Shown here in pieces: positions 1-11,170 of a DNA stretch of 11,170 nucleotides (its first letter is position 1; the number at the start of each line of letters is the position of its first letter). Position numbers and translations under genes: made by a program. The DNA lies in the NCBI GenBank assembly GCA_016840855.1, contig JAEORO010000031.1:1-11170 (forward strand). The letters run 5' to 3'. The notes beneath the pieces were generated by a model that saw nothing but the letters and a program-made list of their open reading frames with translations, was not told the DNA's origin and ran no database searches. Origin of the DNA: Candidatus Thorarchaeota archaeon (lineage in GTDB: Archaea; Asgardarchaeota; Thorarchaeia; Thorarchaeales; Thorarchaeaceae).

Positions 1-507
1 AATTGCTGCATTTCTGGAGATTTTCAATGAGTCTGGGTCATTAATTTGTGTCATTCGAATGGAAAATACTAGCTGAATTATGCATGTGGCTACAATTGTC
101 CCCATTATTATCGCAGCAATCCAAGTAATCTCAACAATAATTTGGGATACACCGAGAAAACCGATGAAGCTCACAATGGTCGTGACAAGCAGGCTGATTT
201 CTCCTATGTAGAACAGATTCAACTTGTGATAGCCCGCTTCAGGTTCAATCACTTTAGCATAATCAAGTGTTGTCCATACTGAAAGAATGATTCCAACGAA
301 AACCAATATTAATCCTGGAACTGCGGCAATGACTGTGAAGAAGGGGTCAAGAGACCATATCGCTTCTCCTGGATCACCGTGATAGACATTTGTGATGAGA
401 TAGTCAAACCTAAGTCCAGTTAGGACTATCCAGAGAAAGCCCCCACCAAAAATGCCGAGAGAAACCAATGCTGGCCCTAATGGGATTCGTCCCAATTCTA
501 ACACCAC
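1..507 (-). CDS. Multi-pass membrane protein, hypothetical (3' end runs off the window; not in the ORF track)
   Basis: Manual translation gives an open frame from GTG (507 or 504; earliest possible GTG 522) to base 1: (V)VLELGRIPLGPALVSLGIFGGGFLWIVLTGLRFDY...FFTVIAAVPGLILVFVGIILSVW...ISLLVTTIVSFIGFLGVSQII...WIAAIIMGTIVATCIIQLVFSIR. It has about four hydrophobic segments. Confidence 0.8.
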   Translation of the reverse strand, partial: MVLELGRIPLGPALVSLGIFGGGFLWIVLTGLRFDYLITNVYHGDPGEAIWSLDPFFTVIAAVPGLILVFVGIILSVWTTLDYAKVIEPEAGYHKLNLFYIGEISLLVTTIVSFIGFLGVSQIIVEITWIAAIIMGTIVATCIIQLVFSIRMTQINDPDSLKISRNAAI

Positions 508-535
508 GCATATGTTATACACCCTTTAGCTTAAT

Positions 536-556
536 CAAATCTCGCTCTCCGCACCA
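536..556 (+). repeat. tRNA 3'-end copy 1 (att-like), probable tRNA-Leu
   Basis: CAAATCTCGCTCTCCGCACCA parses as part of the T-loop (CAAAT), 5-nt T-stem 3' strand, 7-nt acceptor 3' strand, discriminator A and CCA. It is 20/21 identical to 777-797. Confidence 0.85.
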
Positions 557-589
557 ATTTCATCTATTTTCCGGAAATCATGATTTTGA

Positions 590-730
590 TTAGCTTCCAG
601 CAAGTTCTGCCTCACAGTCTTGTTGCTGAAACCACAGAATACCTCGTCTATAGTTGATGATAGTGAATAAAATAAGAAAAACAACAAAAGCTGCTATGAA
701 GAGTGGCCAATTAAAGGAGTCAAACTGCAT
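590..730 (-). CDS. Small single-pass membrane protein, 46 aa (not in the ORF track)
   Basis: ATG at 730 to TAA at 590: MQFDSFNWPLFIAAFVVFLILFTIINYRRGILWFQQQDCEAELAGS. One strong hydrophobic helix is followed by RR, and the ORF fits between repeats 1 and 2. Confidence 0.7.
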   Translation of the reverse strand: MQFDSFNWPLFIAAFVVFLILFTIINYRRGILWFQQQDCEAELAGS

Positions 731-752
731 CAATACTCACGGTTCAGTATAC

Positions 753-776
753 CGAAGATTAATCGATAAATCTTCG
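753..776. promoter_or_regulatory. 24-bp near-perfect palindrome abutting repeat 2
   Basis: CGAAGATT-A-ATCGAT-A-AATCTTCG is self-complementary except A761/A768. It lies between divergent genes and ends immediately before base 777. Confidence 0.5.
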
Positions 777-797
777 CAAATCTCGCCCTCCGCACCA
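777..797 (+). repeat. tRNA 3'-end copy 2 (att-like), probable tRNA-Leu
   Basis: CAAAT CTCGC CCTCCGC A CCA implies a parent tRNA starting GCGGAGG with discriminator A, which resembles archaeal tRNA-Leu. The parent tRNA is not in the window. Confidence 0.85.
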
Positions 798-862
798 GCT
801 CTTACTCGTAAGAAAATCCTCAAATCTATTTGTTAACTTATTCTCAGCAGGGGGATTGATTC

Positions 863-1396
863 ATGCAAGAGTCTCCTATTTCCTATTCCTACGATAAACA
901 AAGACTCATTGGAATAATCATCCCACTACTTTTACTAGGTTTTGTTGCATTCGCCTCACCAATTGCTGTCCTCGTAACCACTGAAGAACCACCTCCTTTT
1001 CCACCCCCGGGTTGGGAGTCAAGTGTCACGATTTATCTTTGGGCTGCAAGATTTACTTCCGCATTTATACAAACAGAGTATGGTTTAGAAGGCGGGATCA
1101 CAAATTTTCATACAATCCCATTTGTAATCATGACGATGCTGTATTTCATTATCCACATTGCTGTGGGGTTGAGAATAGTCCCAGCTAGATACGGTGCAGG
1201 AGTTGCTGTCATAGTCCTTATAATTTGGGTAACCATCTGTCATTTAATCTATGGCACTCTACAAGAGTGGTCACTAATCCAAATTCCAATACTACCAATA
1301 GTAGGAGTTACTATTCTGCTGGTTGTATATGGGAACCAAGTGTTTCGGCTCTCACCCACCACGCCAGCTTCTTCCTTCTATCTATCAGCATCGTAG
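863..1396 (+). CDS. Multi-pass membrane protein, hypothetical
   Basis: 177-aa ORF with about four hydrophobic segments and a Pro-rich loop (EEPPPFPPPGW). GGGGG lies shortly upstream of the ATG, and the stop is 13 bp before repeat 3. Confidence 0.8.
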   Translation: MQESPISYSYDKQRLIGIIIPLLLLGFVAFASPIAVLVTTEEPPPFPPPGWESSVTIYLWAARFTSAFIQTEYGLEGGITNFHTIPFVIMTMLYFIIHIAVGLRIVPARYGAGVAVIVLIIWVTICHLIYGTLQEWSLIQIPILPIVGVTILLVVYGNQVFRLSPTTPASSFYLSAS

Positions 1397-1409
1397 TTTC
1401 TGCATCAGC

Positions 1410-1430
1410 CAATTCTCACCCTCCTTACCA
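1410..1430 (+). repeat. tRNA 3'-end copy 3, degenerate
   Basis: CAATTCTCACCCTCCTTACCA matches 777-797 at 17/21 ungapped, in the same orientation, with ACCA retained, directly after a gene end. Confidence 0.65.
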
Positions 1431-1523
1431 CTCTTTCTAGCAATTTCATCATTTCGAGAATATCTGAAGTCAATCCTTAAGTGAAACAACCAAGATATGA
1501 AATTTACAAACAAGATTGTAAAA

Positions 1524-1688
1524 GGACCCACCCCAGGTGCGACGAGGCAAATTCGCATCCCTAATACAGGTGGGTCCGAGGGAGGGAGTTGTCTTCTGAA
1601 GTCTGATGGGACTCGACAAAGCATTGTGATCCAAGACGTGCATTGTTTTTACTGCGAGTCCCTGGTGGAAGGCGTGAATCTTGGATTC
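1524..1688. ncRNA. Putative structured non-coding RNA (long hairpin plus pseudoknot or switch), family unknown
   Basis: Complementary pairs are GGACCCACC 1524-1532/GGTGGGTCC 1569-1577, GGTGCGA 1536-1542/TCGCATC 1553-1559, GGGACTCG 1608-1615/CGAGTCCC 1655-1662 and ATCCAAGA 1629-1636/TCTTGGAT 1679-1686. The last two pairs are interleaved. The minus strand has TTTTATAT (1718-1711) upstream and TTTT (1523-1520) downstream. Confidence 0.55.
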
Positions 1689-1710
1689 ATTCATTAATGC
1701 GAAGGAGCTA

Positions 1711-1718
1711 ATATAAAA
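1711..1718 (-). promoter_or_regulatory. Candidate TATA box for a minus-strand transcript starting near 1690
   Basis: TTTTATAT on the minus strand, about 22-30 nt upstream of the first stem of the structured element. Confidence 0.35.
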
Positions 1719-1849
1719 TCGTCATGAAAACAATTGCTGCTTTTTCAACCAGCACATGCAAAATTATGGTACATTTAACACAAATTTGGAACTACGGCAA
1801 TGTATAAAGGTCAAGATGGTAGGGAGCATCTTAGACCCCTTGGGAGTGA

Positions 1850-2857
1850 TTGAGAACGTCATCTCGAAGAATTGGAATAGTCGGAACAGGCAACATGGGT
1901 CGAATACATGCACGTATTCTTAGCGACTTAGGCGCTCTTGTGGGTGTAGCTGATACTGACCATGCTACTGCGCAACAGGTAGCAAAAGAGCACAACACAA
2001 TTCCATTCAACGACTTTGAATCAATGATTGATGAAACAAAACCAGACGGTGTTGTAATTGCCACACCAACATCAACTCATGCAAATATAGCCCGAACAAT
2101 AGCCACAAAATATGAGGATATCAAGGGAATACTCATCGAAAAACCTCTAGCCAGCACATTAGAAGATGGAAAAAAGGTTGCAGAGATAGTGAAGAAACGA
2201 GGAATCGTCACTTTAGTTTCGCACTCAGAGATCTACAATCCAATTGTTGGGAGAGCACTATCACTCATAAAAACTGATGCAATTGGGAGTCCTCAGACTG
2301 TTATTTACGATAGACGAGGATTTGTACAACCAGAGAGAATCCCATCGCTTGGTGATGTCTTTGAAGATCTAGGCGTACACGACTTTGACATCATGGCAAG
2401 GATTAGTAACGGACCTGCAAAACTCTATGCTCAGAGTGACACTGTTGGTGGAATTCATAATAGTGGAGAGATTATGGTGAAGTTTGTTTCCGGAACAAAG
2501 CACATCTTTCACCTCTCTAGACAGTATGCTGGACGCCGGCGATACATGGACGTTTCAGGCTCAAAAGGGGCATTGGTTCTTGATTTGTTCGGTCAGATAA
2601 TCAAGGTACAGCATTTGGATCAAGCACCTGTTGCTAAAGGTGACACAATACAGCTTCCTGAGAGAGGAGCAACAATCAAAGTCTATGGTGAACCAGTAAG
2701 AGAAGTACTCAATGACTTTTTACGATGTATAAAGACAGGTGAAACTCCAAGGGTTAGCATAGATGATGCTCTATGCGCATTAGAGATTGTGGAAGCTTCA
2801 AGAAAGAGCGCAGAATCAGGAGATGTAGTAGATATCGAGATAAAACCTAGGAGATAA
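1850..2857 (+). CDS. Gfo/Idh/MocA family NAD(P)-dependent oxidoreductase
   Basis: Rossmann motif IGIVGTGNMG, plus ATPTSTH, EKP and DLGVHDFD motifs. TTG start, with TATAAA at 1803-1808 upstream. Confidence 0.92.
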   Translation: MRTSSRRIGIVGTGNMGRIHARILSDLGALVGVADTDHATAQQVAKEHNTIPFNDFESMIDETKPDGVVIATPTSTHANIARTIATKYEDIKGILIEKPLASTLEDGKKVAEIVKKRGIVTLVSHSEIYNPIVGRALSLIKTDAIGSPQTVIYDRRGFVQPERIPSLGDVFEDLGVHDFDIMARISNGPAKLYAQSDTVGGIHNSGEIMVKFVSGTKHIFHLSRQYAGRRRYMDVSGSKGALVLDLFGQIIKVQHLDQAPVAKGDTIQLPERGATIKVYGEPVREVLNDFLRCIKTGETPRVSIDDALCALEIVEASRKSAESGDVVDIEIKPRR

Positions 2858-4136
2858 CTTTTCCATTCAGATGGGTTCGTTTTGATGATGTAATCTCAAC
2901 ATCAACGATTGTTCCTAGTTTCAAATCCTCGTTAACAACAACTATCTTGTAAGACTCATTTCGTCCCAGCATTCCACCTTTTGAACCCTTCTCGGTAATC
3001 ATGATTGGACCAGACCATCCAACCCATGCTTCATTGGATTCTGTGATAATCTCATTTGCGATCTTTGTCAAAATCCTACTGCGGTTCTTCTTCACTGAAG
3101 TATCTACCTTTTCATTTGATTGTGAGGCAAGAGTATTAGGCCTATCGCCATACTTTGAGATATTGATGACCGATGGTCTTACACTTTGAATTAATTCAAG
3201 GGTTTCTTTGAAATCGGTTTCATTTTCACCCGGAAATCCAACTATGATGTCAGTAGCGATTGTTGGATTCTTGAATCGTTTCCTGACCCTCTCAACAATG
3301 TTCACCCAATCACTGGCAATGTACCTGCGTTTCATTGTTTTCAGAATCTTATCACTACCAGACTGGAGGGGGATATGAAAGAACTTAAAGAAATGCTCAT
3401 TTTTCATCGACTCTAGAAGGTCGTTGATTGAGCTCATCACAATGTTTGGATTAAACATACCAAGTCGATACTTGTGATTTCCTTCAATAGTAGCTATTGA
3501 CTGCATAAGCCCAGTAAGTGTTTCACCAGTGTCATTTCCAAACACTGCAGCATCTTGAGATGTTAATCGAATCTCACGGTATCCAAGATGGACACATCGC
3601 TCGATTATTCGATGGATGCTTGAAATAGAATAGCTTCGTACCTTTCCGCGGGCGAATTTCACAGCACAGTATGCGCAACTCCCAAGGCAGCCTTCACAGA
3701 TTGGGATGGTGCAAATTACACTATCAGGTGGTCCTACCAACCATTTTAGTTTGTAAGAATTATCAGATTCTATTTGCCGAATTCCTCTCGCACCATGGAG
3801 AATACGCTGAACAATAGATGCCAGTGTGTCAATTGATTGAGGACCAAGTAATGCAGCATATTCTGGAATTGCCTTCTCGATTCGATCAGGAGAGATTTTT
3901 GGCAGACATCCGGTAACAATGATTGGAGTACTGCCCTGTCCCAGTTGTTCAAGTCTATGAATGATTTTGTCCTCTGTTGGTTCCTTAACACCGCACGTGT
4001 TCAGTAAAATCAGCTCGGCTTCACGGATGTCCTTTACACGTTGTCCTTCAATAGCTTCAAGGCGTCCTATAATGATGTCAGAATCAGCCGCGTTTAGCGA
4101 ACACCCATACGTTTCAAGATAGTATTTGAGGACCAT
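2847..4136 (-). CDS. mtaB: Radical SAM tRNA methylthiotransferase, MiaB-like, archaeal MtaB/CDKAL1 type (t6A37 to ms2t6A37)
   Basis: UPF0004 N-terminal Cys motifs (ETYGC, NTCGVK, TGC), CxxxCxxC (CLGSCAYC), HIPLQSGS, TDIIVGFPGE and a C-terminal TRAM-like domain. Confidence 0.88.
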   Translation of the reverse strand: MVLKYYLETYGCSLNAADSDIIIGRLEAIEGQRVKDIREAELILLNTCGVKEPTEDKIIHRLEQLGQGSTPIIVTGCLPKISPDRIEKAIPEYAALLGPQSIDTLASIVQRILHGARGIRQIESDNSYKLKWLVGPPDSVICTIPICEGCLGSCAYCAVKFARGKVRSYSISSIHRIIERCVHLGYREIRLTSQDAAVFGNDTGETLTGLMQSIATIEGNHKYRLGMFNPNIVMSSINDLLESMKNEHFFKFFHIPLQSGSDKILKTMKRRYIASDWVNIVERVRKRFKNPTIATDIIVGFPGENETDFKETLELIQSVRPSVINISKYGDRPNTLASQSNEKVDTSVKKNRSRILTKIANEIITESNEAWVGWSGPIMITEKGSKGGMLGRNESYKIVVVNEDLKLGTIVDVEITSSKRTHLNGKVIS

Positions 4137-4147
4137 ACACTCAACAC

Positions 4148-4441
4148 CTAGCCGCCTTGAACATGAGGAAGGATGGCAATTTCATCCCCATCTTGAATGA
4201 CTATATCAATTCCTCCCAGGGTTTCAACATCTTTCTTGTTAAGCATCACAATCAGATTTCCACTGATATTATCATTGTGCATTATAAGTTTCCTGAGTTC
4301 TTCTCCTCCAATCTCAACAACTCTATTGACAACTTGTCGGACTGTTGTATTGTCAGGAACCTCAATGTCTATGATTTTTTCTTTCAGATGCCTTCGCACT
4401 GGTCCGAACGACTTGAACTTGACTTTCAAATGGTTAACCAT
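4148..4441 (-). CDS. MoaD/ThiS/SAMP/Urm1-family ubiquitin-like protein
   Basis: About 97 aa with a beta-grasp-type pattern (VKFKSFG...IVMLNKKDV...DGDEIAILPHVQGG) and C-terminal diglycine. Start placed at ATG 4441; the ORF track extends it to 4456. Confidence 0.9.
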   Translation of the reverse strand: MVNHLKVKFKSFGPVRRHLKEKIIDIEVPDNTTVRQVVNRVVEIGGEELRKLIMHNDNISGNLIVMLNKKDVETLGGIDIVIQDGDEIAILPHVQGG

Positions 4442-4461
4442 TGCAGTTGAAAGCAAGAGGA

Positions 4462-4833
4462 CTATTCAGCCTTTTGATAATACGAAATGACCTCATCCAC
4501 AAGAGCATCAACGACCGTAATGATCTCCTCAATCTCGCTTCGACTGGCATTATCATAGTGAATACCAACAGTGACAAAAGTGGGAACTTCTAGAGCTTTG
4601 CAGATTTTCTCTGCAGATGTGTTGGCCACAACATAGTCCTTGTGTCCAGGTAGAGTGAGAGTACTCACACTTATGGTTGTAGCATCTCGGTAGTGGCTCT
4701 TTGTTGGATATGCTGTGGCAACACCACCGATATGGTGTTCATCACCGCCATATATGGCAATTAGAAGGTCTCTCCCAATCTCTTTTGCTTCAAGACGGAT
4801 ATTGTGCCGGCCAGCTTTTCTTTCGAATATCAT
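4462..4833 (-). CDS. LpdD-like (prenylated-flavin chaperone / proteasome-assembly-chaperone-like) protein
   Basis: 123 aa with motifs G-x-DL...GG-x3-HIG, PGHKD and GIH-x-D-x-A, recalled as characteristic of the LpdD/PAC_bac family. Confidence 0.7.
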   Translation of the reverse strand: MIFERKAGRHNIRLEAKEIGRDLLIAIYGGDEHHIGGVATAYPTKSHYRDATTISVSTLTLPGHKDYVVANTSAEKICKALEVPTFVTVGIHYDNASRSEIEEIITVVDALVDEVISYYQKAE

Positions 4834-4884: not shown

Positions 4885-6453
4885 CTATTCGTTGCTTTCC
4901 TCTTTCTGGTGCTGTTGGAACATCCTATATGAGAGTGTCATGGTCTTCGGATGTGCAGATCTATACTCATCCAGAAGACCAACAGATGTGCTGTATGGTG
5001 CATTCTTCACTTTTTCAGGATCTTCATGAGCTTCTTTCGAGATTGCCTCAAGTGTGAAGATGAAGAAATCAAGATCTTGACGAGACTCTGTTTCCGTTGG
5101 TTCAATCATCAAGGCCTCAGGGACTATGAGAGGGAAATATACAGTGGGAGCATGTACACCAAAGTCAAGCAGACGTTTAGCCACATTCATGGCAGTGACT
5201 TCAGTCTTTTTCTTCAGCTCTTCAGCTGAGATGACACATTCATGCATCCGAGGAGCATCTTGTGAGTATGGAAGAGTAAATCCGGGTATATTTCGCACAT
5301 GATGTGCAACATAGTTAGCATTCAGTACTGCCACCTCAGATGCTCTTTCGAGACCTTCAGCACCTAGGGCATAGATATACGAATAGGCTCGAATTAATAC
5401 GCCAAAGTTTCCATAGAAGCTTTTGACTTTTCCAATTGACCGTGGATAGTCATAGTCCAAGTCAAAACTACCATCTTCCTTCTTCACAACACGTGGGACT
5501 GGGAGAAAGTCAATCAACTTCTCAGTGACACCGACTGGACCAGCTCCTGGTCCTCCTCCACCGTGTGGTGTTGAGAACGACTTGTGAAGGTTCAGGTGAA
5601 CAACATCAAAGCCCATATCACCTGGTCTGACCTTGCCCATTATCGCATTGAAATTGGCACCATCGTAGTATACCAGTCCACCAGCATCATGCACAATATC
5701 AGTGATCTCTTCGATATCTTTCTCAAAGACTCCTATTGTGTTAGGGTTGGTGAGCATAAGACCAGCTGTCTTTGGACCAATAACCTCTTTCAAAGCATCT
5801 AAGTCTACTAACCCTTCCTTACTTGAGGGGATTACGACTACTTTGTATCCAGCCATCGCAGCTGATGCTGGATTTGTGCCATGTGCAGCATCTGGAATAA
5901 GCATCTCAGTTCGCTGCTCACAGTTTTCTGTGAAGCAACGATGAAACTCACGTATCATCATGACTCCAGTCCATTCACCCTGAGCGCCTGCAGCAGGCTG
6001 AAGGGTGACAGCATCCATTCCAGTTATCTCACCAAGCCATCGTTCCAACTCCCACATCATTTCAAGAGCTCCTTGAGTCATAGAAGAGTCTTGAAGCGGA
6101 TGCAACCACGCAAAACCAGCTGTACTAGCAGCCCAATTGTTTTCAGCGGGATTATATTTCATCGTGCAGCTGCCCAATGGATAAGTGCCAAGGTTCACTG
6201 CGAAGTTCATCTGTGAGAGTCGAGTATAATGACGAGCAATCCCAGGCTCTGAAACCTCAGGTATTCTTGGTGATTCCTTTCGAACCATCTTATTTGGCAT
6301 AACATCCTCAATGCTACCAACCACCTTTTTCACATCAGGCTCAGGGGTTGGGAAAACATGTCCCACAATTCCAGGCATTGATCTTTCAAAGATTAGAGGT
6401 TCAATCCACTTTGCTTGGCGTACCTTGGTGTCATCAGGTCTGTCTTGCTTCAT
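4885..6453 (-). CDS. gcvPB: Glycine dehydrogenase (decarboxylating) subunit 2
   Basis: Motifs YPLGSCTMKYNP, QPAAGAQGE, AHGTNPASA, YYDGAN, PLP-lysine motif NLHKSFSTPHGGGGPG and IEPTETE. Confidence 0.97.
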   Translation of the reverse strand: MKQDRPDDTKVRQAKWIEPLIFERSMPGIVGHVFPTPEPDVKKVVGSIEDVMPNKMVRKESPRIPEVSEPGIARHYTRLSQMNFAVNLGTYPLGSCTMKYNPAENNWAASTAGFAWLHPLQDSSMTQGALEMMWELERWLGEITGMDAVTLQPAAGAQGEWTGVMMIREFHRCFTENCEQRTEMLIPDAAHGTNPASAAMAGYKVVVIPSSKEGLVDLDALKEVIGPKTAGLMLTNPNTIGVFEKDIEEITDIVHDAGGLVYYDGANFNAIMGKVRPGDMGFDVVHLNLHKSFSTPHGGGGPGAGPVGVTEKLIDFLPVPRVVKKEDGSFDLDYDYPRSIGKVKSFYGNFGVLIRAYSYIYALGAEGLERASEVAVLNANYVAHHVRNIPGFTLPYSQDAPRMHECVISAEELKKKTEVTAMNVAKRLLDFGVHAPTVYFPLIVPEALMIEPTETESRQDLDFFIFTLEAISKEAHEDPEKVKNAPYSTSVGLLDEYRSAHPKTMTLSYRMFQQHQKEESNE

Positions 6454-7856
6454 TGTGCAACACCTCCCTCTGACACAATATTTTCCACAGCTTGTATTAG
6501 TTCGTCGATGTTTTCTTTGCTATGAATCTCTGTCACGCAAAACAACATTGATTCTCCCAATGTGGGGAACTCTTCAGTGAGTATTTTACCGCCGTGGATA
6601 CCCCTCTCAAGAAGGCCTTCATGTACATCTTTGGCTGTGACCCCATTTTCAAATCGGACTACAAATTCTTTCCAGATAGATTCTCCAATAGCAGGTGCTT
6701 TTACTCCATGAATTCTGTCAAGCATTCTAGCAGTGTAGTTAGCGTTGAAGGTGATGGTCTCGCTGACTTGTTTCAAACCAGTTGGACCAAGAAGTGATAT
6801 GTAGATTGTCGCAGTAACAGCAGCAAGTGCCTGATTGGAACAGATGTTGCTTGTAGCTTTCTCCCGACGAATATGTTGCTCTCTGGGACTTAATGTTAAT
6901 ACGAATCCATCTTCATAGGGTTCTTTTTCTGTTCGTGTCATTCCGACCAATCTACCAGGCATCTGGTAAATGAGTTTACGATCATTTGTACATCCAAAAA
7001 TACCAAGTAGAGGACCACCAAATGTCATAGGAGAACCTAGGTGTTGACCTTCCGCGACAACTATGTCTGCACCATAATTACCGGGCGGTCGAATGAGTCC
7101 TAAAGACAAGACATCGACTCCAACCACCAGCAACGCTTCCTTATCATGAACGATCCTACTTATTTCATCAACCTGAGTTTCGATGAATCCTAGATAACTC
7201 GGATTTTCGATATATACTCCTGCAACTTGATTGTCAATTTTTGACTCAAGGTCAGCGAGTGACATTAGACCAGTGTGTTTGTCATAGTCTATTTTCTCAA
7301 GTTCAATATCAACTGGTTCGGTATATGTCTGAATGACCTTGTAGTGTTCAGGATTGATGGTACCTGGGACAAGGAATCTCGAGCGCTGCTTCTTGACACG
7401 TGCAGACATTCTCGCAGCTTCAGCGACTGCAGTTGCCATATCGTACATTGATGAGTTCACAACATCTATGTCTAGAATCTCAGCAAGTAGGCTCTGATAT
7501 TCAAACAGTGTCTGAAGCATGCCTTGGCTTATCTCAGCCTGATAACTTGTGTAAGATGTAAGAAATTCCGATCTTGTAGCCAGCGCAGGAACAATGGCAG
7601 GGATGTAATGTAACCCTATACCAGCACCAAGAAAGACACGTCCAGTGTCTGCAGGTTTGTTCTTAGCCGCTAGTTCTTGTATCCTCCGTGTGACTTCAAT
7701 CTCGCTGTGAGAACCTGGAAGATTCAGGTCACGGGGTAACCTGAATTTCTCAGGTATGTTCGAGAACAAATCGTCGAGACTTTTCTTACCAATAGACTCT
7801 AGCATTTCTTTCTCAGTTGCTTTTGTCATTGGTATCCAAGGATGCTTGTATTCCAT
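6450..7856 (-). CDS. gcvPA: Glycine dehydrogenase (decarboxylating) subunit 1
   Basis: Motifs FLGAG, EFLTSYTSYQAEISQG, NSSMYD, FGGP, MPGRLVG and REQHIRREKATSNICSNQ. It has an ATGA overlap with gcvPB. Confidence 0.97.
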   Translation of the reverse strand: MEYKHPWIPMTKATEKEMLESIGKKSLDDLFSNIPEKFRLPRDLNLPGSHSEIEVTRRIQELAAKNKPADTGRVFLGAGIGLHYIPAIVPALATRSEFLTSYTSYQAEISQGMLQTLFEYQSLLAEILDIDVVNSSMYDMATAVAEAARMSARVKKQRSRFLVPGTINPEHYKVIQTYTEPVDIELEKIDYDKHTGLMSLADLESKIDNQVAGVYIENPSYLGFIETQVDEISRIVHDKEALLVVGVDVLSLGLIRPPGNYGADIVVAEGQHLGSPMTFGGPLLGIFGCTNDRKLIYQMPGRLVGMTRTEKEPYEDGFVLTLSPREQHIRREKATSNICSNQALAAVTATIYISLLGPTGLKQVSETITFNANYTARMLDRIHGVKAPAIGESIWKEFVVRFENGVTAKDVHEGLLERGIHGGKILTEEFPTLGESMLFCVTEIHSKENIDELIQAVENIVSEGGVAQ

Positions 7857-7997
7857 TTTGGAGTCCTCTGAACATTAGGATGCATGAGGCGCAGCTAGTC
7901 TCCCAAATAGCCTTTCGGGTTGAACATCAGAAATAGTTGTGTGAATAATTTTTTAACGGCAACCGATTATTCGACGCCAGTCACAGATGTGATAGAA

Positions 7998-8312
7998 ATG
8001 AAACGTTGGTTGATGGATATCCTCGCTTGCCCGATAAGCGACTGTAGAAGTGAGCTTGCTCTGGAGGTCTTTACCTCGCATAATCTAGAGAGTGATGGTG
8101 AAGAAATCGAGGAAATCGACGAAGCGTTAATAACATGTCCGAAGTGTGGCAGATGGTATCCTGTCATTGATGGGATTGCTTGTATGCTTCCCGACAATCT
8201 CAGGATGGATGGTAAACAAAGGATAGAGGAAACTAAGTTTCTCGAGCGTTGGAAGGAGCGAATTGCTTCTGAGATTCTAGACAATGGTGTTCCTTTCAGC
8301 TTAAAGTCCTAA
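7998..8312 (+). CDS. trm112: Trm112-family methyltransferase activator
   Basis: MKRWLMDILACP...C...LITCPKCGRWYPVIDGIACMLPD is the Trm112 zinc-binding signature. The likely start is ATG 7998 rather than 7920. Confidence 0.9.
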   Translation: MKRWLMDILACPISDCRSELALEVFTSHNLESDGEEIEEIDEALITCPKCGRWYPVIDGIACMLPDNLRMDGKQRIEETKFLERWKERIASEILDNGVPFSLKS

Positions 8313-8336
8313 ACCTGAGTAAATGGGTTTACCTAT

Positions 8337-8412
8337 AGCCCCGTGGTGTAGCGGTCCAGCATAGCGGGTTTTGGCCTCGCTGACGGAGGTTCAAATCCTC
8401 CCGGGGCTACCA
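8337..8412 (+). tRNA. tRNA-Gln (anticodon TTG at 8371-8373), intronless, CCA encoded
   Basis: 76-nt cloverleaf with acceptor AGCCCCG/CGGGGCT (A1-U72, the archaeal Gln hallmark), anticodon stem GCGGG/CTCGC with loop TTTTGGC, T arm GGAGG-TTCAAAT-CCTCC and terminal ACCA. Confidence 0.97.
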
Positions 8413-8495
8413 CTTTTCCAAGAATTAAAATCGATGGACGCGATTCTTCTCTCGCAGTGGTTTTTAGTAGTTGATAAGAATCGGGGCTGGCAAGA

Positions 8496-10109
8496 ATGTA
8501 TCAAAATCGCCAAGAATCAAAGAAATCCTATTTCTCACTAAGAAAAAAGGGTAGGATAGCACTAATCTTAGTGATACTCTTGGCGATAGTATCATCCAAA
8601 CAGACATTATTGTTTTCAACGGATATTCAAAATAGTAGATTTACAACAATTCCCAGTAATCAAGTGTTTCATGAGAGTATTGAAATTGCCTCGGACAACG
8701 ATTTCATCCTACAAGGATGGCCAGGAAATGGGAGTGTTTCAAATCCCTTCCTAATTGAAGAACTCGAAATCAGGTCTGATGATGAGTGTATTAGGATAAG
8801 CAATACCAGAAGTCATTTCGTAATTCGCAATTGTTTCTTATCATCCATTCTCCGACAATATCATGGAACTGGTGTATACTTGAGAAATGTGACTCATGGA
8901 ACAATCGAATTGTCAAAAATATCTGGTCTTGGAGTTGGAATATACGATCGACGCAGCACCAAGAATGTCTATCGTAATAATACAATCGAAGACACATGGG
9001 ATGGAATTCTTCTTGGGTCTTGCATTGACAATATTGTTGCAAATAATTCGGTGACGGGCAATCAAGGAGGGTACGACATTCATGTTTTAGATTCTCGAGA
9101 GTGTTCGGTACTTGGAAATTTCATAAGTGGAATTGTTTTCGCGTTTTCTACTAACTGTACAGCAGGATGCAACTCTGGTCTTGTAGAAGGATTGAATATT
9201 TACAGTGAAAACCTGACTCATTGGCTGCATCGGATTTATGACAACTATTTCAATGGAAACATGCTTGGCTACTTCAGAGATACTTCTGACTTAATTATCG
9301 ATGGTAATCTCTATTCTCAACTGATATTAGTGAATGTAACAAGAGCAATAGTCAGCGGTGGAGTATTTCGATATCTATCGATGGGCGTTCAGATTATTCA
9401 TTCTGCTGATTGCAAGCTATCAGACATTGTTTCTGAGAGAAGCCTTCAAGCTGGAGTCAACATTAAGAGTTCGATAAATTGCACCATCATAAATAGTAGT
9501 ATGAATGAGAATTCGGATGGAGTGCTTGTTTCAGGTTCAGAGAGAATAAGAGTTGAAGGAACTAAATTGAATAACAATTCATTTTATGGGATCGGAGTTG
9601 ATACTTCTAATAGCTGCCATTTCATTGGAAACACAATATCGAATAATTGGCTAGGCATTTCAATCAATATGTCGAACAACTGCACGATATCAGAAAATGA
9701 CATCTTTGAAAATGACAAAGGGATTGTTCTATCCTCATCAAATCAGAGTTTAATCACAAATAATGTTGTGCACAAGAATGAGATTGGAATCTTGTTAGAA
9801 ACGACAACATCAAATAACTCGATATATTGGAACACCTTCATTTGGAATACTGAAAAGAATGCAGTTGATGATGGCACTTTCAATAGCTGGGATGATGGTA
9901 TTAGCAGGGGGAATGTCTGGAGCGATTATGCTGGATGTGGCCCTTATACAATTCCTGGACTAGCTCAGAGTGTTGACAGATTTCCTATGGCAATAGGATT
10001 TCAGATCCCAAATGTAGTAATTCCAGTTCTACTGATCATTATAACGACTATAGTATTGTTGTATTCACAGAAACAACGATTTCGTGAATTAAAATCTTCA
10101 AAGAATTAG
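8496..10109 (+). CDS. Membrane-anchored right-handed parallel beta-helix (NosD/CASH-repeat) surface protein
   Basis: N-terminal basic plus hydrophobic segment, WPGNGSVSNPFLIE, many N-x-I-x-x-N-x-x-GI repeats, GNVWSDY...DRFP, and a C-terminal hydrophobic helix followed by a basic tail. Many N-x-S/T sequons. Confidence 0.88.
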   Translation: MYQNRQESKKSYFSLRKKGRIALILVILLAIVSSKQTLLFSTDIQNSRFTTIPSNQVFHESIEIASDNDFILQGWPGNGSVSNPFLIEELEIRSDDECIRISNTRSHFVIRNCFLSSILRQYHGTGVYLRNVTHGTIELSKISGLGVGIYDRRSTKNVYRNNTIEDTWDGILLGSCIDNIVANNSVTGNQGGYDIHVLDSRECSVLGNFISGIVFAFSTNCTAGCNSGLVEGLNIYSENLTHWLHRIYDNYFNGNMLGYFRDTSDLIIDGNLYSQLILVNVTRAIVSGGVFRYLSMGVQIIHSADCKLSDIVSERSLQAGVNIKSSINCTIINSSMNENSDGVLVSGSERIRVEGTKLNNNSFYGIGVDTSNSCHFIGNTISNNWLGISINMSNNCTISENDIFENDKGIVLSSSNQSLITNNVVHKNEIGILLETTTSNNSIYWNTFIWNTEKNAVDDGTFNSWDDGISRGNVWSDYAGCGPYTIPGLAQSVDRFPMAIGFQIPNVVIPVLLIIITTIVLLYSQKQRFRELKSSKN

Positions 10110-10217
10110 ATAAAAATCTAAAGCATATTCATGATAGTTGAAAACTAGTGCAATGTAAAACGTCCAGTCTTGTTCATGGTGCGAAGAATGAAAAACCCAC
10201 AGAGGGATTGTCAATTT

Positions 10218-10242
10218 GGTTCAAATCCTCCCGGGGCTACCA
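10218..10242 (+). repeat. Duplicated 3' end of tRNA-Gln (attR-like)
   Basis: 25/25 identity with 8388-8412; the flanking bases differ on both sides. Confidence 0.95.
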
Positions 10243-10248
10243 TATACA

Positions 10249-10737
10249 TTAGTACTTGAATTGATAGTCACCCACTTGAATTTTTGAGAGGTTTTTTTCT
10301 CCAGACCAAGGTTTCCGTACTTCAACAAGATTTAGAACGTCATAACCTCGCTTCTGCAGGAATTGAATAATTCCAGCGTTATTTGGATGAACCCAATTAT
10401 AGACGGTTTCTTCTTCCAGTTCTTCGGCAAGATGTTCGACTTCAGAGTATAAGGCAGATCCAACCCCTTTTCGTCGTGCTGATGGTGTTACGTATAAAGA
10501 CTCAGCCCAAACGACTGTCTGTTCAACTTTGCAGACTATGTATCCGAGAATCTCATTATTCGCTTCCGCTACGTGAATAGAGTATTTTGGCGACAGATAG
10601 CAATCGAGTTCGCTTCTTGCTGCTTCAAGATCAGGTTCTTTTGAGAGTGATTTTAGGCTCGAGAGGAACACACGATATTCAGCGATGAGTGGAATGACTT
10701 GACCCTTGTCTTCGGGGCGATAAGTTCTGATTTCCAT
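10249..10737 (-). CDS. GNAT family N-acetyltransferase
   Basis: Acetyl-CoA motif A (LYVTPSARRKGVGSAL) and N...FLQKRGY. Confidence 0.9.
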   Translation of the reverse strand: MEIRTYRPEDKGQVIPLIAEYRVFLSSLKSLSKEPDLEAARSELDCYLSPKYSIHVAEANNEILGYIVCKVEQTVVWAESLYVTPSARRKGVGSALYSEVEHLAEELEEETVYNWVHPNNAGIIQFLQKRGYDVLNLVEVRKPWSGEKNLSKIQVGDYQFKY

Positions 10738-10826
10738 ACGAACAAATCTGTTTCATGAGATAAGTGCCTTTGGTCAAACTATATGTTGCAGTCTAGACGA
10801 GGAACGTTAAATTAACTGAACTATGA

Positions 10827-11170
10827 TTATTTCTCTGTAGGACTAAGTCCCTCACCAGCATCAGCCATCTGGACGCGGAATAACCTCTTCACATGAGAAA
10901 GAACAAGACGGTCTCCATTGACAAGAACTTCAATCTCGATGTTGTCACCTAAGCCGGATGTGGAGATTTTCTTCTCTAAGACTGCTTCCACTTGAAAAAC
11001 TCTTGCTGTGTTATCCATAGCAACTGAACTTTTCAATGGTTTCTTCTCTCCACGTTCAAGAATTACATTGTTAATCGCCATCGCACTTACGCTATGAATA
11101 TCGACCTTACCTTTCTGAAAAGGAACCTTTGTGCGACCCTTCGTTAAGTCACAGCCATCTCCAAGTTTTG
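10827..11170 (-). CDS. HD-superfamily phosphohydrolase (COG3294-like), C-terminal part; 5' end outside the window
   Basis: The frame stays open upstream of the listed ATG 11081 to the window edge: KLGDGCDLTKGRTKVPFQKGKVDIHSVSAMAI...GEKKP...VFQVE..L.KKI..SGL. This matches the recalled D-x-x-D-x-x-KGR / IHSVSA family pattern. Confidence 0.72.
   Translation of the reverse strand, partial: KLGDGCDLTKGRTKVPFQKGKVDIHSVSAMAINNVILERGEKKPLKSSVAMDNTARVFQVEAVLEKKISTSGLGDNIEIEVLVNGDRLVLSHVKRLFRVQMADAGEGLSPTEK

Follow-up and report, generated by a model that had tools for sequence, protein, structure and literature searches.

Mostly single-gene units bounded by copies of tRNA 3' ends form integron-like arrays behind tRNA genes in a genus of Thorarchaeota

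Repeats and units at the left end of the window

The window analysed here comprises the first 11,170 bases of contig C127 from a Thorarchaeota metagenome-assembled genome (MAG; bin G000, 3.36 Mb in 259 contigs, 42% G+C, 92% complete, 6.3% contaminated), and its base 1 is the start of the contig. At its left end lie gene-sized units separated by short direct repeats, each a copy of the 3' end of a transfer RNA (tRNA) gene, and a second, shorter array of the same kind lies behind a tRNA-Gln gene further to the right (Table 1). The three 21-bp repeats, R1 to R3, are on the same strand with start-to-start spacings of 241 and 633 bp, just as a reading of the sequence alone (the original prediction) had reported. 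R1 matches tRNA-Leu positions 56-76, that is, the T-loop CAAAT, the 3' strand of the T-stem, the 3' strand of the acceptor stem, A73 and CCA, and the proposed parsing of the 21-mer as a tRNA 3' end was correct when set against real tRNA-Leu genes. Two matches at three or fewer mismatches occurred in 0 of 200 dinucleotide shuffles. The rightmost repeat, described earlier as the most degenerate, does carry the most mismatches, and it is independently supported by a copy after the orthologous F7 cassette, at the same place, in loci L036 (4 mismatches) and L031 (6 mismatches).

Each unit between repeats had also been said to hold one open reading frame (ORF). This stands for unit 2, whose 177-aa gene is conserved, but not for unit 1, where the 47-aa ORF has no homologue among all sequences fetched and the gene is therefore unproven. 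Hydropathy, taken from a simple Kyte-Doolittle window rather than a dedicated predictor, agrees with the suggestion that both of these ORFs and the gene to the left of R1 encode membrane proteins; the 47-aa ORF has one hydrophobic segment. The protein of unit 2, F7, has no Pfam match. Its 16 protein clusters contain only Thorarchaeota-labelled or unlabelled records, it is conserved in Thorarchaeota, and a distant member lies directly behind tRNA-Leu(CAG) in L148. The gene to the left of R1, F21, gave a weak Tetraspanin match under the curated cut-off and has homologues in the tRNA-Leu(GAG) array of C209, another contig of the bin, and in the tRNA-Leu(TAG) array of L154 (73% aa identity).

A tRNA to the left had been predicted to head the array. 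It is invisible for the C127 version of the locus, because base 1 of the window is the start of the contig, and a search of the bin's contigs gave no overlapping contig that extends the window leftwards. However, tRNA genes with the predicted start, GCGGAGG, and the predicted end, CTCGCCCTCCGCACCA, exist on three other contigs, as identified by ARAGORN and Rfam: tRNA-Leu(TAG) on C8, tRNA-Leu(CAG) on C250 and one gene on C209, which heads a longer array at the homologous locus. The 3' ends of these genes read ...GAGTTC[G/A]AATCTCGCCCTCCGCACCA. Searched across the genome, the 21-mer was recovered only from tRNA-Leu genes, from the two arrays and from a few hits with 3-4 mismatches that are other tRNAs, in line with what had been anticipated.

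Judged from its anticodon loop, TTGAGGG, the C209 gene is a tRNA-Leu(GAG), and an insertion of about 30 nt in its variable-arm region is probably a non-canonical intron. ARAGORN missed the gene in default mode and mislabelled it Ser(TGA) in intron mode. Among the tRNA-Leu genes it alone has the TTCAAATC T-loop of the window's copies. It is followed on the minus strand by copies with 2, 0, 0, 4, 4, 3 and 6 mismatches, and the six units hold one long ORF each (161, 356, 169, 373, 117 and 199 aa), with the 240-aa membrane-protein gene F21 coming after the 3-mismatch copy. The F21 gene of the window (C127 78-528) is 72% identical at the nucleotide level to C209 5586-6039, in reverse-complemented coordinates (C209rc), and 59% identical over 167 residues at the amino-acid level. 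To the right of the array, C127 1513-4597 aligns with C209rc 7134-10220 at 76.8% nucleotide identity; the conservation of this flank, which is found at 79 related loci, anchors the orthology of the locus. Since the two contigs have both flanks in common at 72-77% nucleotide identity, the array in the window corresponds to the distal portion of one like that on C209, and C127 represents a second, related version of the locus. Either the bin is composite, or one genome has two such segments. It probably merges two related Thorarchaeota populations, the composite being favoured because duplicate tRNA genes are present on separate contigs; such duplicates are Cys on C60/C225, Arg-TCT on C69/C165 and Leu-TAA on C36/C128.

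Table 1. Coordinates of the array features and neighbouring genes, in window positions unless another contig is named.
Feature	Coordinates	Strand	Basis or remark
F21 cassette gene, N-terminal part, multi-pass membrane protein	1-522	-	Truncated by contig start
R1 repeat	536-556	+	CAAATCTCGCTCTCCGCACCA; 1 mismatch to the middle copy, R2
Unit 1 body, smallest unit (241 bp with one repeat)	557-776	-	Sole ORF 590-733, 47 aa
R2 repeat	777-797	+	CAAATCTCGCCCTCCGCACCA; exact copy of the tRNA-Leu(GAG) 3' 21-mer
F7 cassette (unit 2)	798-1409	+	Single ORF 863-1396, 177-aa multi-pass membrane protein
R3 repeat	1410-1430	+	CAATTCTCACCCTCCTTACCA; 4 mismatches to R2; distal array end
Conserved flank outside the array	1513-4597	mixed	Small ORF, GFO/IDH/MocA, MiaB-like, ThiS/Urm1-like; Pfam
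GFO/IDH/MocA oxidoreductase (GFO)	1850-2857	+	Pfam
MiaB-like radical-SAM enzyme	2847-4136	-	Pfam
ThiS/Urm1-like protein	4148-4456	-	Pfam
tRNA-Gln(TTG), anchor of the second, shorter array	8337-8412	+	tRNA search
tRNA-Gln unit, one gene	8413-10217	+	ORF 8496-10109, 537-aa NosD/right-handed beta-helix protein
tRNA-Gln 3'-end copy, exact, 25 bp	10218-10242	+	Repeat search
Second inserted unit at tRNA-Gln	10243-10827	-	GNAT acetyltransferase 10249-10737; no recognisable terminal repeat
tRNA-Leu(GAG)	C209 9521-9635 (115 nt)	-	Rfam, 47.7 bits

Two further observations were made on C209. The 240-aa F21 ORF (C209rc 5284-6006) continues across the repeat beside it, where the complement codes for RAEGEI, and ends 46 nt inside the next unit, so that recombination at the copy apparently gave the protein a new C-terminus. 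About 450-540 bp 5' of the tRNA-Leu gene, at approximately 10035-10075 on the minus strand, there is a tRNA 3' half ending in GGTTCGAATCCCGCCCGGGGCTCCA, which went uncalled by every tool used. Several relatives have weak matches to it at the same relative position, and it may be another intron-bearing or split tRNA.

Turnover of discrete units among relatives

We compared the window to loci retrieved through the GFO protein. This gave 79 loci with 59-93% GFO identity, nearly all in records titled Candidatus Thorarchaeota or Promethearchaeota MAGs. At least two same-strand copies of the 21-mer, with up to four mismatches, were identified in 22 of them, while at least 13 distant loci (GFO 59-65% identical) represent the empty site, with just the tRNA less than 500 bp 5' of the GFO gene. 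The array statistics are based on 37 loci, namely C127, C209 and 35 of the 79 that were picked for at least two copies or a closely related GFO gene; the 44 left out had a single copy, none, or no upstream sequence. In total, the 37 loci contain 25 tRNA copies and 60 non-tRNA copies. Conservation begins one T before the 21-mer and continues through CCA, drops abruptly on either side of this block, and is followed by a T-rich stretch.

Fifty units of 241-2808 bp are bounded by two copies. Counted as greedy longest-ORF calls, which are not gene predictions, ORFs of at least 60 aa number one in 40 units, two in six, three in two and none in the remaining two. The single ORF is antisense to the tRNA in 29 of the 40 cases and sense in 11, with an orientation that is constant within each family, and the genes are compact and intact with short flanks, a median 3' gap of about 18 nt and 5' gaps that mostly measure 27-100 nt. 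Each unit is thus made up of two parts: a short body, as a rule a single complete gene and its short flanks, and after it a 21-22-bp copy of the tRNA 3' end (T55/C56 to A76). Folding of 81-nt sequences at 59 copies gave a mean z-score of -0.15 relative to mononucleotide shuffles, with 5% below -2. At a threshold of one mismatch, and among 59 genomes of the order with a completeness of at least 85%, more than three copies of the 19-mer were present in 19 of 22 genomes of the genus, with a maximum of 15, and in 13 of 37 genomes outside it; in the other genera the count is mostly exactly three, corresponding to the three tRNA-Leu genes.

The behaviour of single units is well illustrated by F3, a unit of about 513 bp that encodes a CxxCxxCC-domain protein. 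In an alignment from eight genomes, homology extends from after the left CCA to the right CCA, and the sequence outside is unrelated because F3 is found anywhere from the first to the fourth array position, next to different units. Inspection by eye, of this one family, showed no terminal inverted repeat. At E <= 1e-5, F3 was absent from four of five high-quality array-less Thorarchaeota genomes, and the fifth has only a 30%-identical relative.

Closely related loci differ by whole units. L099 has one extra unit of 498 bp at the tRNA relative to L063, with flanks that are 93-95% identical. At the tRNA of L049 there is a 615-bp unit that L050 does not have, and L050 in turn has about 1.1 kb extra at the far end. 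L094 and L033 are about 90% identical; in L094 a 670-bp unit is located between two common units, and the first and last units differ. In all three pairs the differences are exact at the copies, and in two of the three they concern the tRNA-proximal position. The units are thus discrete modules bounded exactly by copies, and they are present or absent, replaced and reordered between relatives; distant relatives have the empty site. The cross-genome comparison thus came out in favour of the original prediction, which had looked to gain, loss or reordering of cassettes exactly at the repeats.

The same variation was found in public population data, where the region is represented in 20 runs from six studies, in each case by assembled contigs, and four runs from four studies were mapped. 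A contig of a strain about 91% identical (run X7) joins position 523 to 777 with 11 other letters between and is without the 241-bp unit. Contigs of runs X1 and X2 are identical to the window through the end of R1 and then continue with the nine letters that follow R2, and one contig of X1 diverges to a different sequence after R2. These contigs represent presence/absence variation at the copies, and the variant without the 241-bp unit is in favour of the original prediction. Depth holes in X1 and X14 (1132-1566 and elsewhere) were set aside as uninformative, since the runs are contigs.

The order of the units also differs. F3 and F9 are in conflicting order in L029 compared to L033 and L094, as are F3 and F8 in C209 compared to L034 and L035, and F5 and F9 in L031 compared to L028, so that differential loss alone is insufficient. 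Moreover, F3 of L041 is 89-91% identical to F3 of three genomes with which it has a GFO identity of only 71-72%. One alternative is that the units are immobile and represent decayed remnants of larger virus or plasmid integrations at the tRNA, each with its own integrase at first; successive integrations would have displaced the older remnants outward, and deletions would have trimmed each to about one gene. Archaeal elements with tandem integration at tRNA genes and with integrase loss are documented in the available portions of two surveys (PMC8371274, PMC6563490), as they are, in the part of that work available, for tycheposon islands of Prochlorococcus; tyrosine recombinases are sporadic in the group, and the cargo of a 2.6-kb unit at tRNA-Ala is island-like. 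On the other hand, none of about 50 array ORFs that were scanned for domains contains a recombinase or integrase fragment, a transposase, or a replication or virion domain, and the genes are intact, with 40 of 50 units holding one ORF and the median 3' gap being as short as stated. Independent decay would not yield an F3 unit with identical boundaries at different positions in eight genomes, and the order conflicts, together with the sharing of units across three tRNA-Leu sites described below, require movement of small units. We therefore consider decayed remnants to be an unlikely explanation.

The copies become more divergent with distance from the tRNA. The mean number of mismatches by rank is 0.16, 1.1, 2.4, 2.1 and 3.2 (Spearman 0.62, n=83, for copies detected at up to six mismatches in kin that are not independent). 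The original prediction placed the oldest units furthest away. The mismatch trend agrees with this, but gains and losses also occur inside the arrays and at the far end, and the near-perfect R1 and R2 are distal to a cassette shared with C209.

Further arrays are located at the tRNA-Leu(CAG) and tRNA-Leu(TAG) genes of genus members, and families F7 and F21, both in the window, as well as F12, F16, F33, F56 and F74 are common to the arrays of the three tRNA-Leu isoacceptors. Three sites with the same 19-nt 3' end thus draw on one pool of cassettes. In L151, L158 and L149, copies with A57 lie behind tRNA-Leu genes with G57, so the copy is part of the unit and did not arise by duplication of the local target. 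Units carry their own version of the copy, and the tRNA-proximal copies are the best preserved. This bears on another alternative, in which a transposase or casposase-like integrase, cutting the tRNA 3' end with a 21-22-bp stagger, produced the copies as target-site duplications, or the units are tRNA-primed complementary DNAs (cDNAs). According to the available portion of one survey, the 3' ends of tRNA genes are insertion targets of casposons, which can build up there in tandem (PMC6563490); on its opposite strand, a copy resembles a primer-binding site complementary to a tRNA 3' end including CCA, and 29 of the 40 single-ORF units are antisense. Against this, A57 copies lie behind G57 tRNAs, which means that they do not duplicate the target beside them, 11 of the 40 units are in sense orientation, and no terminal inverted repeat was seen in the F3 unit. 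Cas1, rve, IS110 and reverse transcriptase were all undetected in this genome. Taken together, an origin of this kind appears very improbable.

Other tRNA anchors and the cargo of the arrays

The arrays are not restricted to tRNA-Leu. In this genome, same-strand copies within 15 kb downstream were identified for 7 of the 34 detected tRNA 3' ends. They sum to 18 copies, of which six each belong to Leu-GAG and Ala-GGC, two to Cys, and one each to Gln-TTG, Glu, Val and Asp. The length of the duplicated block varies with the tRNA: Leu and Ala have 21-23 nt, Gln has 25 nt, and in Cys, Asp and Val it is longer still. There were no upstream copies other than a genuine tRNA-Arg pair, and the only opposite-strand match lies downstream of tRNA-Gly(TCC), which has no same-strand copy. 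All seven copy-bearing tRNAs of this genome have the TTCAAATC T-loop, and none of the 13 tRNAs with other loops has copies. A recognition rule specific to A57 was nevertheless rejected, since genus members have arrays behind the G57 tRNA-Leu(CAG/TAG) genes.

In the window itself, the second array follows tRNA-Gln(TTG). The homologue of 10828-11170 comes directly after tRNA-Gln in three relatives (G016, G009 and G039), in which the NosD unit is absent, so that 8413-10827 is an insertion; in G005, the GNAT unit is found behind a Gln copy. The genes to the left of this array include those for both glycine-cleavage P-protein subunits (4885-7856) and two core genes, one for a proteasome-assembly-chaperone-like protein (4462-4833, minus strand; PAC_bac, 8e-36) and one for a Trm112-like zinc-ribbon protein (7920-8312, plus strand) immediately 5' of tRNA-Gln. 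Elsewhere in the bin, a tRNA-Sec gene with anticodon TCA is present on contig C72 (35074-35164), from which the organism probably uses selenocysteine.

Families of the Leu array were not seen in the Ala, Cys, Val and Asp arrays of this genome. At L121 (C161 7464-8835), tRNA-Glu(TTC) is followed by one unit with a small membrane protein, by one copy, and then by a gene for a single-stranded DNA-binding (SSB)-like OB-fold protein, F1, with a Gly/Arg-rich tail. F1 is 82-88% identical at the amino-acid level to a tRNA-Leu-array gene of other genomes and is absent from the window's Leu locus. It is the only match within the genome between Leu-array genes and a tRNA for a different amino acid, and it may represent relocation between anchors of different acceptor sequence, the right-hand copy not being recognisable.

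The cargo of the arrays is diverse. Proteins expected to bind nucleic acids or metals are the SSB-like OB-fold protein, the CxxCxxCC protein and a DUF2284 protein, while the enzymes comprise GNAT acetyltransferases, a cupin, an acyl-CoA thioesterase, a prephenate dehydratase, an ATC hydrolase, an S9 peptidase, alpha/beta hydrolases and an ICMT-type methyltransferase. A PrcB_C protein, a TauE exporter, an arrestin/Vps26-like protein, a winged helix-turn-helix regulator, several membrane proteins and several ORFs without a match were also identified. The first unit at tRNA-Ala(GGC), of 2.6 kb (L117, C201 9230-11691), encodes a PLD-like nuclease, a TIR-domain protein and a fragment of an N6/N4 DNA methylase, and its cargo is defence-island-like. 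The arrestin/Vps26-like protein, of 300 aa, is encoded directly behind tRNA-Leu in one Thorarchaeota MAG (L048 6768-7670, plus strand). It is of a eukaryote-signature type, with matches to Arrestin_N (1.5e-17), Vps26 (2.6e-13) and Arrestin_C (1.4e-11).

Possible mechanisms and comparison with known systems

How the units move is less clear than that they do. The reading that we favour, at about even odds, is that they are integron-like, non-autonomous cassettes that undergo conservative site-specific recombination at the tRNA-derived core, with a recombinase supplied in trans. On this model, a unit would leave as a circle, made of its body and one copy, through recombination between the two flanking copies, and the circle would re-enter through its own copy, either at the 3' part of the tRNA gene, which would be rebuilt, or at another copy in the array. 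The intact tRNA would be the preferred entry point, older units would be pushed outward and their copies would decay. The tRNA gene would thereby take the role of attI and the 21-22-bp copies that of attC, and the recombinase would be encoded outside the arrays, on an unbinned mobile element, or belong to an unrecognised family.

Several results weigh against such a recombinase. None of the families PF00589 (Phage_integrase), PF16795 (SSV-type), PF00239 (Resolvase), PF00078 (RVT_1), PF01548 (IS110), PF01867 (Cas1) and PF00665 (rve) was found in this genome, although the control genomes were matched, and phmmer searches of the genome with ORFs from recombinase loci of the genus gave no recombinase. 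Tyrosine recombinases are sporadic among the relatives, with matches in 9 of 28 genomes of the genus and in 23 of the 59 genomes of the order Thorarchaeales that are at least 85% complete. Copies of tRNA ends were absent from 12 short tyrosine-recombinase loci and 12 longer stretches of the genus and from 14 stretches of the family, and only one of these loci lies beside a tRNA; no IMG/VR contig contains the Leu 22-mer or the Gln 21-mer. In the copies themselves, the sequence to the left is not conserved and there is no mirroring of the T-stem, so that they have no second, symmetric arm, as a classic core site would. Most shared cassettes are about as diverged as the core gene (70-82% nucleotide identity, r 0.3-0.9), and hence a large part of what the arrays contain is old and was passed down vertically; turnover may be so slow that rare homologous recombination would suffice to explain it. 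A circular junction was not observed in the public runs, which are contigs and unable to show circles or frequencies, and the bin is probably composite, with two versions of the locus and the contamination given above. The tyrosine-integrase step of the original prediction has thus not been borne out, since no such enzyme is detectable in this genome and the sporadic ones of relatives are not linked to tRNAs. In contrast, its central idea of an integron-like array built at tRNA attachment cores is supported by the gain, loss and reordering of units at the repeats.

Other observations were made in the course of these searches. No PF00589 match was obtained in 36 of the 59 Thorarchaeales genomes, including a single-contig genome and several that are 97-99% complete, whereas all 14 controls have one, and Thorarchaeales appears to be a group without a core XerA-type recombinase. 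The bins richest in recombinase matches (G034, G035, G015 and G011) are also the richest in Leu copies; nothing was drawn from this coincidence, as they are the most fragmented bins. In G035, three tyrosine-recombinase genes are arranged in tandem on a 2.7-kb contig (C116; L014, L023). A single TnpB-like ORF on C54 of this genome is not a recombinase. The Ala 21-mer matched three phage contigs in IMG/VR and was dismissed as irrelevant, because it corresponds to the end of a tRNA-Lys gene inside tRNA clusters.

No dedicated recombinase may be needed. Copies left over from old integrations could be kept identical by gene conversion against the selected tRNA gene, and general homologous recombination across 19-22 bp of identity could delete, circularise, reinsert or swap units, within the genome or with DNA from relatives. 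This is in line with the failure to detect a recombinase of a known family in this genome and with the rarity of events that is implied by cassette divergence mostly following the core. Exchange is also confined to three tRNA-Leu genes with a common part of the acceptor stem, and direct repeats would be expected to recombine with loss of what lies between them, as with the 241-bp unit between R1 and R2. F8-F3 and F5-F7 were found adjoined without an intervening copy, as if units fuse when copies lose their identity. However, repeats of 21 bp are very short for efficient homologous recombination. Nor does this model account for the way in which a new gene comes by its tRNA 3' fragment in the first place, for the sharp left boundary in the T-loop that many families have in common, or for the preference for tRNA-proximal positions, as seen in two of the three close pairs and in the mismatch gradient. 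We consider general recombination a tentative explanation.

The strongest form of the recombinase model is a genuine Asgard gene-cassette system in this genus, with tRNA genes as primary sites and a 22-bp core, in which an unrecognised recombinase, or a host enzyme that reads the T-loop and acceptor region, takes up, stores and shuffles single genes at many tRNAs; eukaryote-like genes are among those found in array positions. This is possible, yet we hold it with reserve. If a dedicated enzyme exists, it would constitute a new site-specific recombination system for a short and nearly universal kind of sequence. If there is none, the arrays would show the reach of 20-bp repeats and general recombination in building an integron-like store of genes. 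The genomes of Asgard archaea are large and flexible, and their uptake and reshuffling of genes bear on models for the origin of eukaryotes. Throughout a Thorarchaeota genus, a well-defined share of the flexible genome appears to be housed in compact cassette arrays downstream of tRNA genes. For practical purposes, the arrays break assemblies, many copies being located at the ends of contigs, and mark flexible genes in MAGs, and the 22-bp core offers a handle for cassette-targeted polymerase chain reaction from sediments, as has been done with attC.

The arrays share features with several known systems. Casposons have Cas1, PolB, terminal inverted repeats and 14-15-bp duplications. Their insertion at tRNA 3' ends and their tandem arrays are similar to what is described here, but Cas1 was not found here and the copies did not arise by duplicating the target beside them. 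In archaeal integrated mobile genetic elements of the SSV type and others with tyrosine recombinases, attL and attR derive from the 3' part of a tRNA gene, tandem integration occurs and integrase-less elements are known, according to the available portions of two surveys (PMC6563490, PMC8371274). The integrase defines that class, whereas the units described here are smaller, integrase-less and part of an exchangeable pool. In the same portions, the smallest cryptic integrated element of Thaumarchaeota is 2.6 kb with four genes, including the integrase (PMC6563490).

Tycheposons, as the available part of their description has them, are multi-kb elements with their own tyrosine or large serine recombinase, often with replication genes, and with attachment sites of about 40 nt (bioRxiv 10.1101/2020.12.28.424599), and tRNA-linked "additive" flexible genomic islands have been described in marine bacteria (PMC4119200, likewise in part). 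As far as these texts go, both resemble the present arrays in that the tRNA target is conserved, partial tRNA copies lie between successive elements, older elements are pushed outward, remnants and extra partial tRNAs accumulate, and islands differ among close strains. Here, in contrast to tycheposons so described, the units are 0.24-2.8 kb, 40 of 50 have one ORF, there is no recombinase in about 50 ORFs, and the host is an Asgard archaeon. As in tRNA-targeting integrative elements, the direct repeats are identical to the 3' part of a tRNA, and the tRNA is regenerated.

The closest parallel in architecture is the integron, which has been reported in Archaea (PMC9668308, in the portion available). 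The cassettes are compact, non-autonomous and mostly single-ORF, with a recombination site in fixed orientation, and they carry diverse accessory cargo (GNATs, cupins, hydrolases, membrane proteins and unknowns). They are mobile and vary among relatives; the arrays are reshuffled and differ even among close ones, and the primary site is at one end, where the newest units tend to be. Unlike in integrons, there is no intI beside the array or in the genome (PF00589, 0 matches); the neighbours are radical-SAM and AIR-synthase-like genes upstream of tRNA-Leu in L032 and GFO, MiaB and ThiS downstream. The separators are 21-22-bp tRNA 3' copies without hairpin potential rather than imperfect-palindrome attC sites, as judged by the folding z-score, and Rfam identified only tRNA in the window and C209. 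There are at least seven tRNA anchors per genome as compared to one attI, and both gene orientations occur in the arrays, so that a single Pc-type promoter cannot serve the array. As the tests for intI and attC failed, the arrays are not an integron, though they work like a sedentary one. No earlier description of this architecture was found in full-text literature and in the available text of papers on the Asgard and archaeal mobilome, a scope that excludes subscription journals and supplements. What would be new here is an accretion at tRNA sites, in Asgard archaea, that is pared down to single-gene cassettes without an integrase and has the dynamics of an integron.

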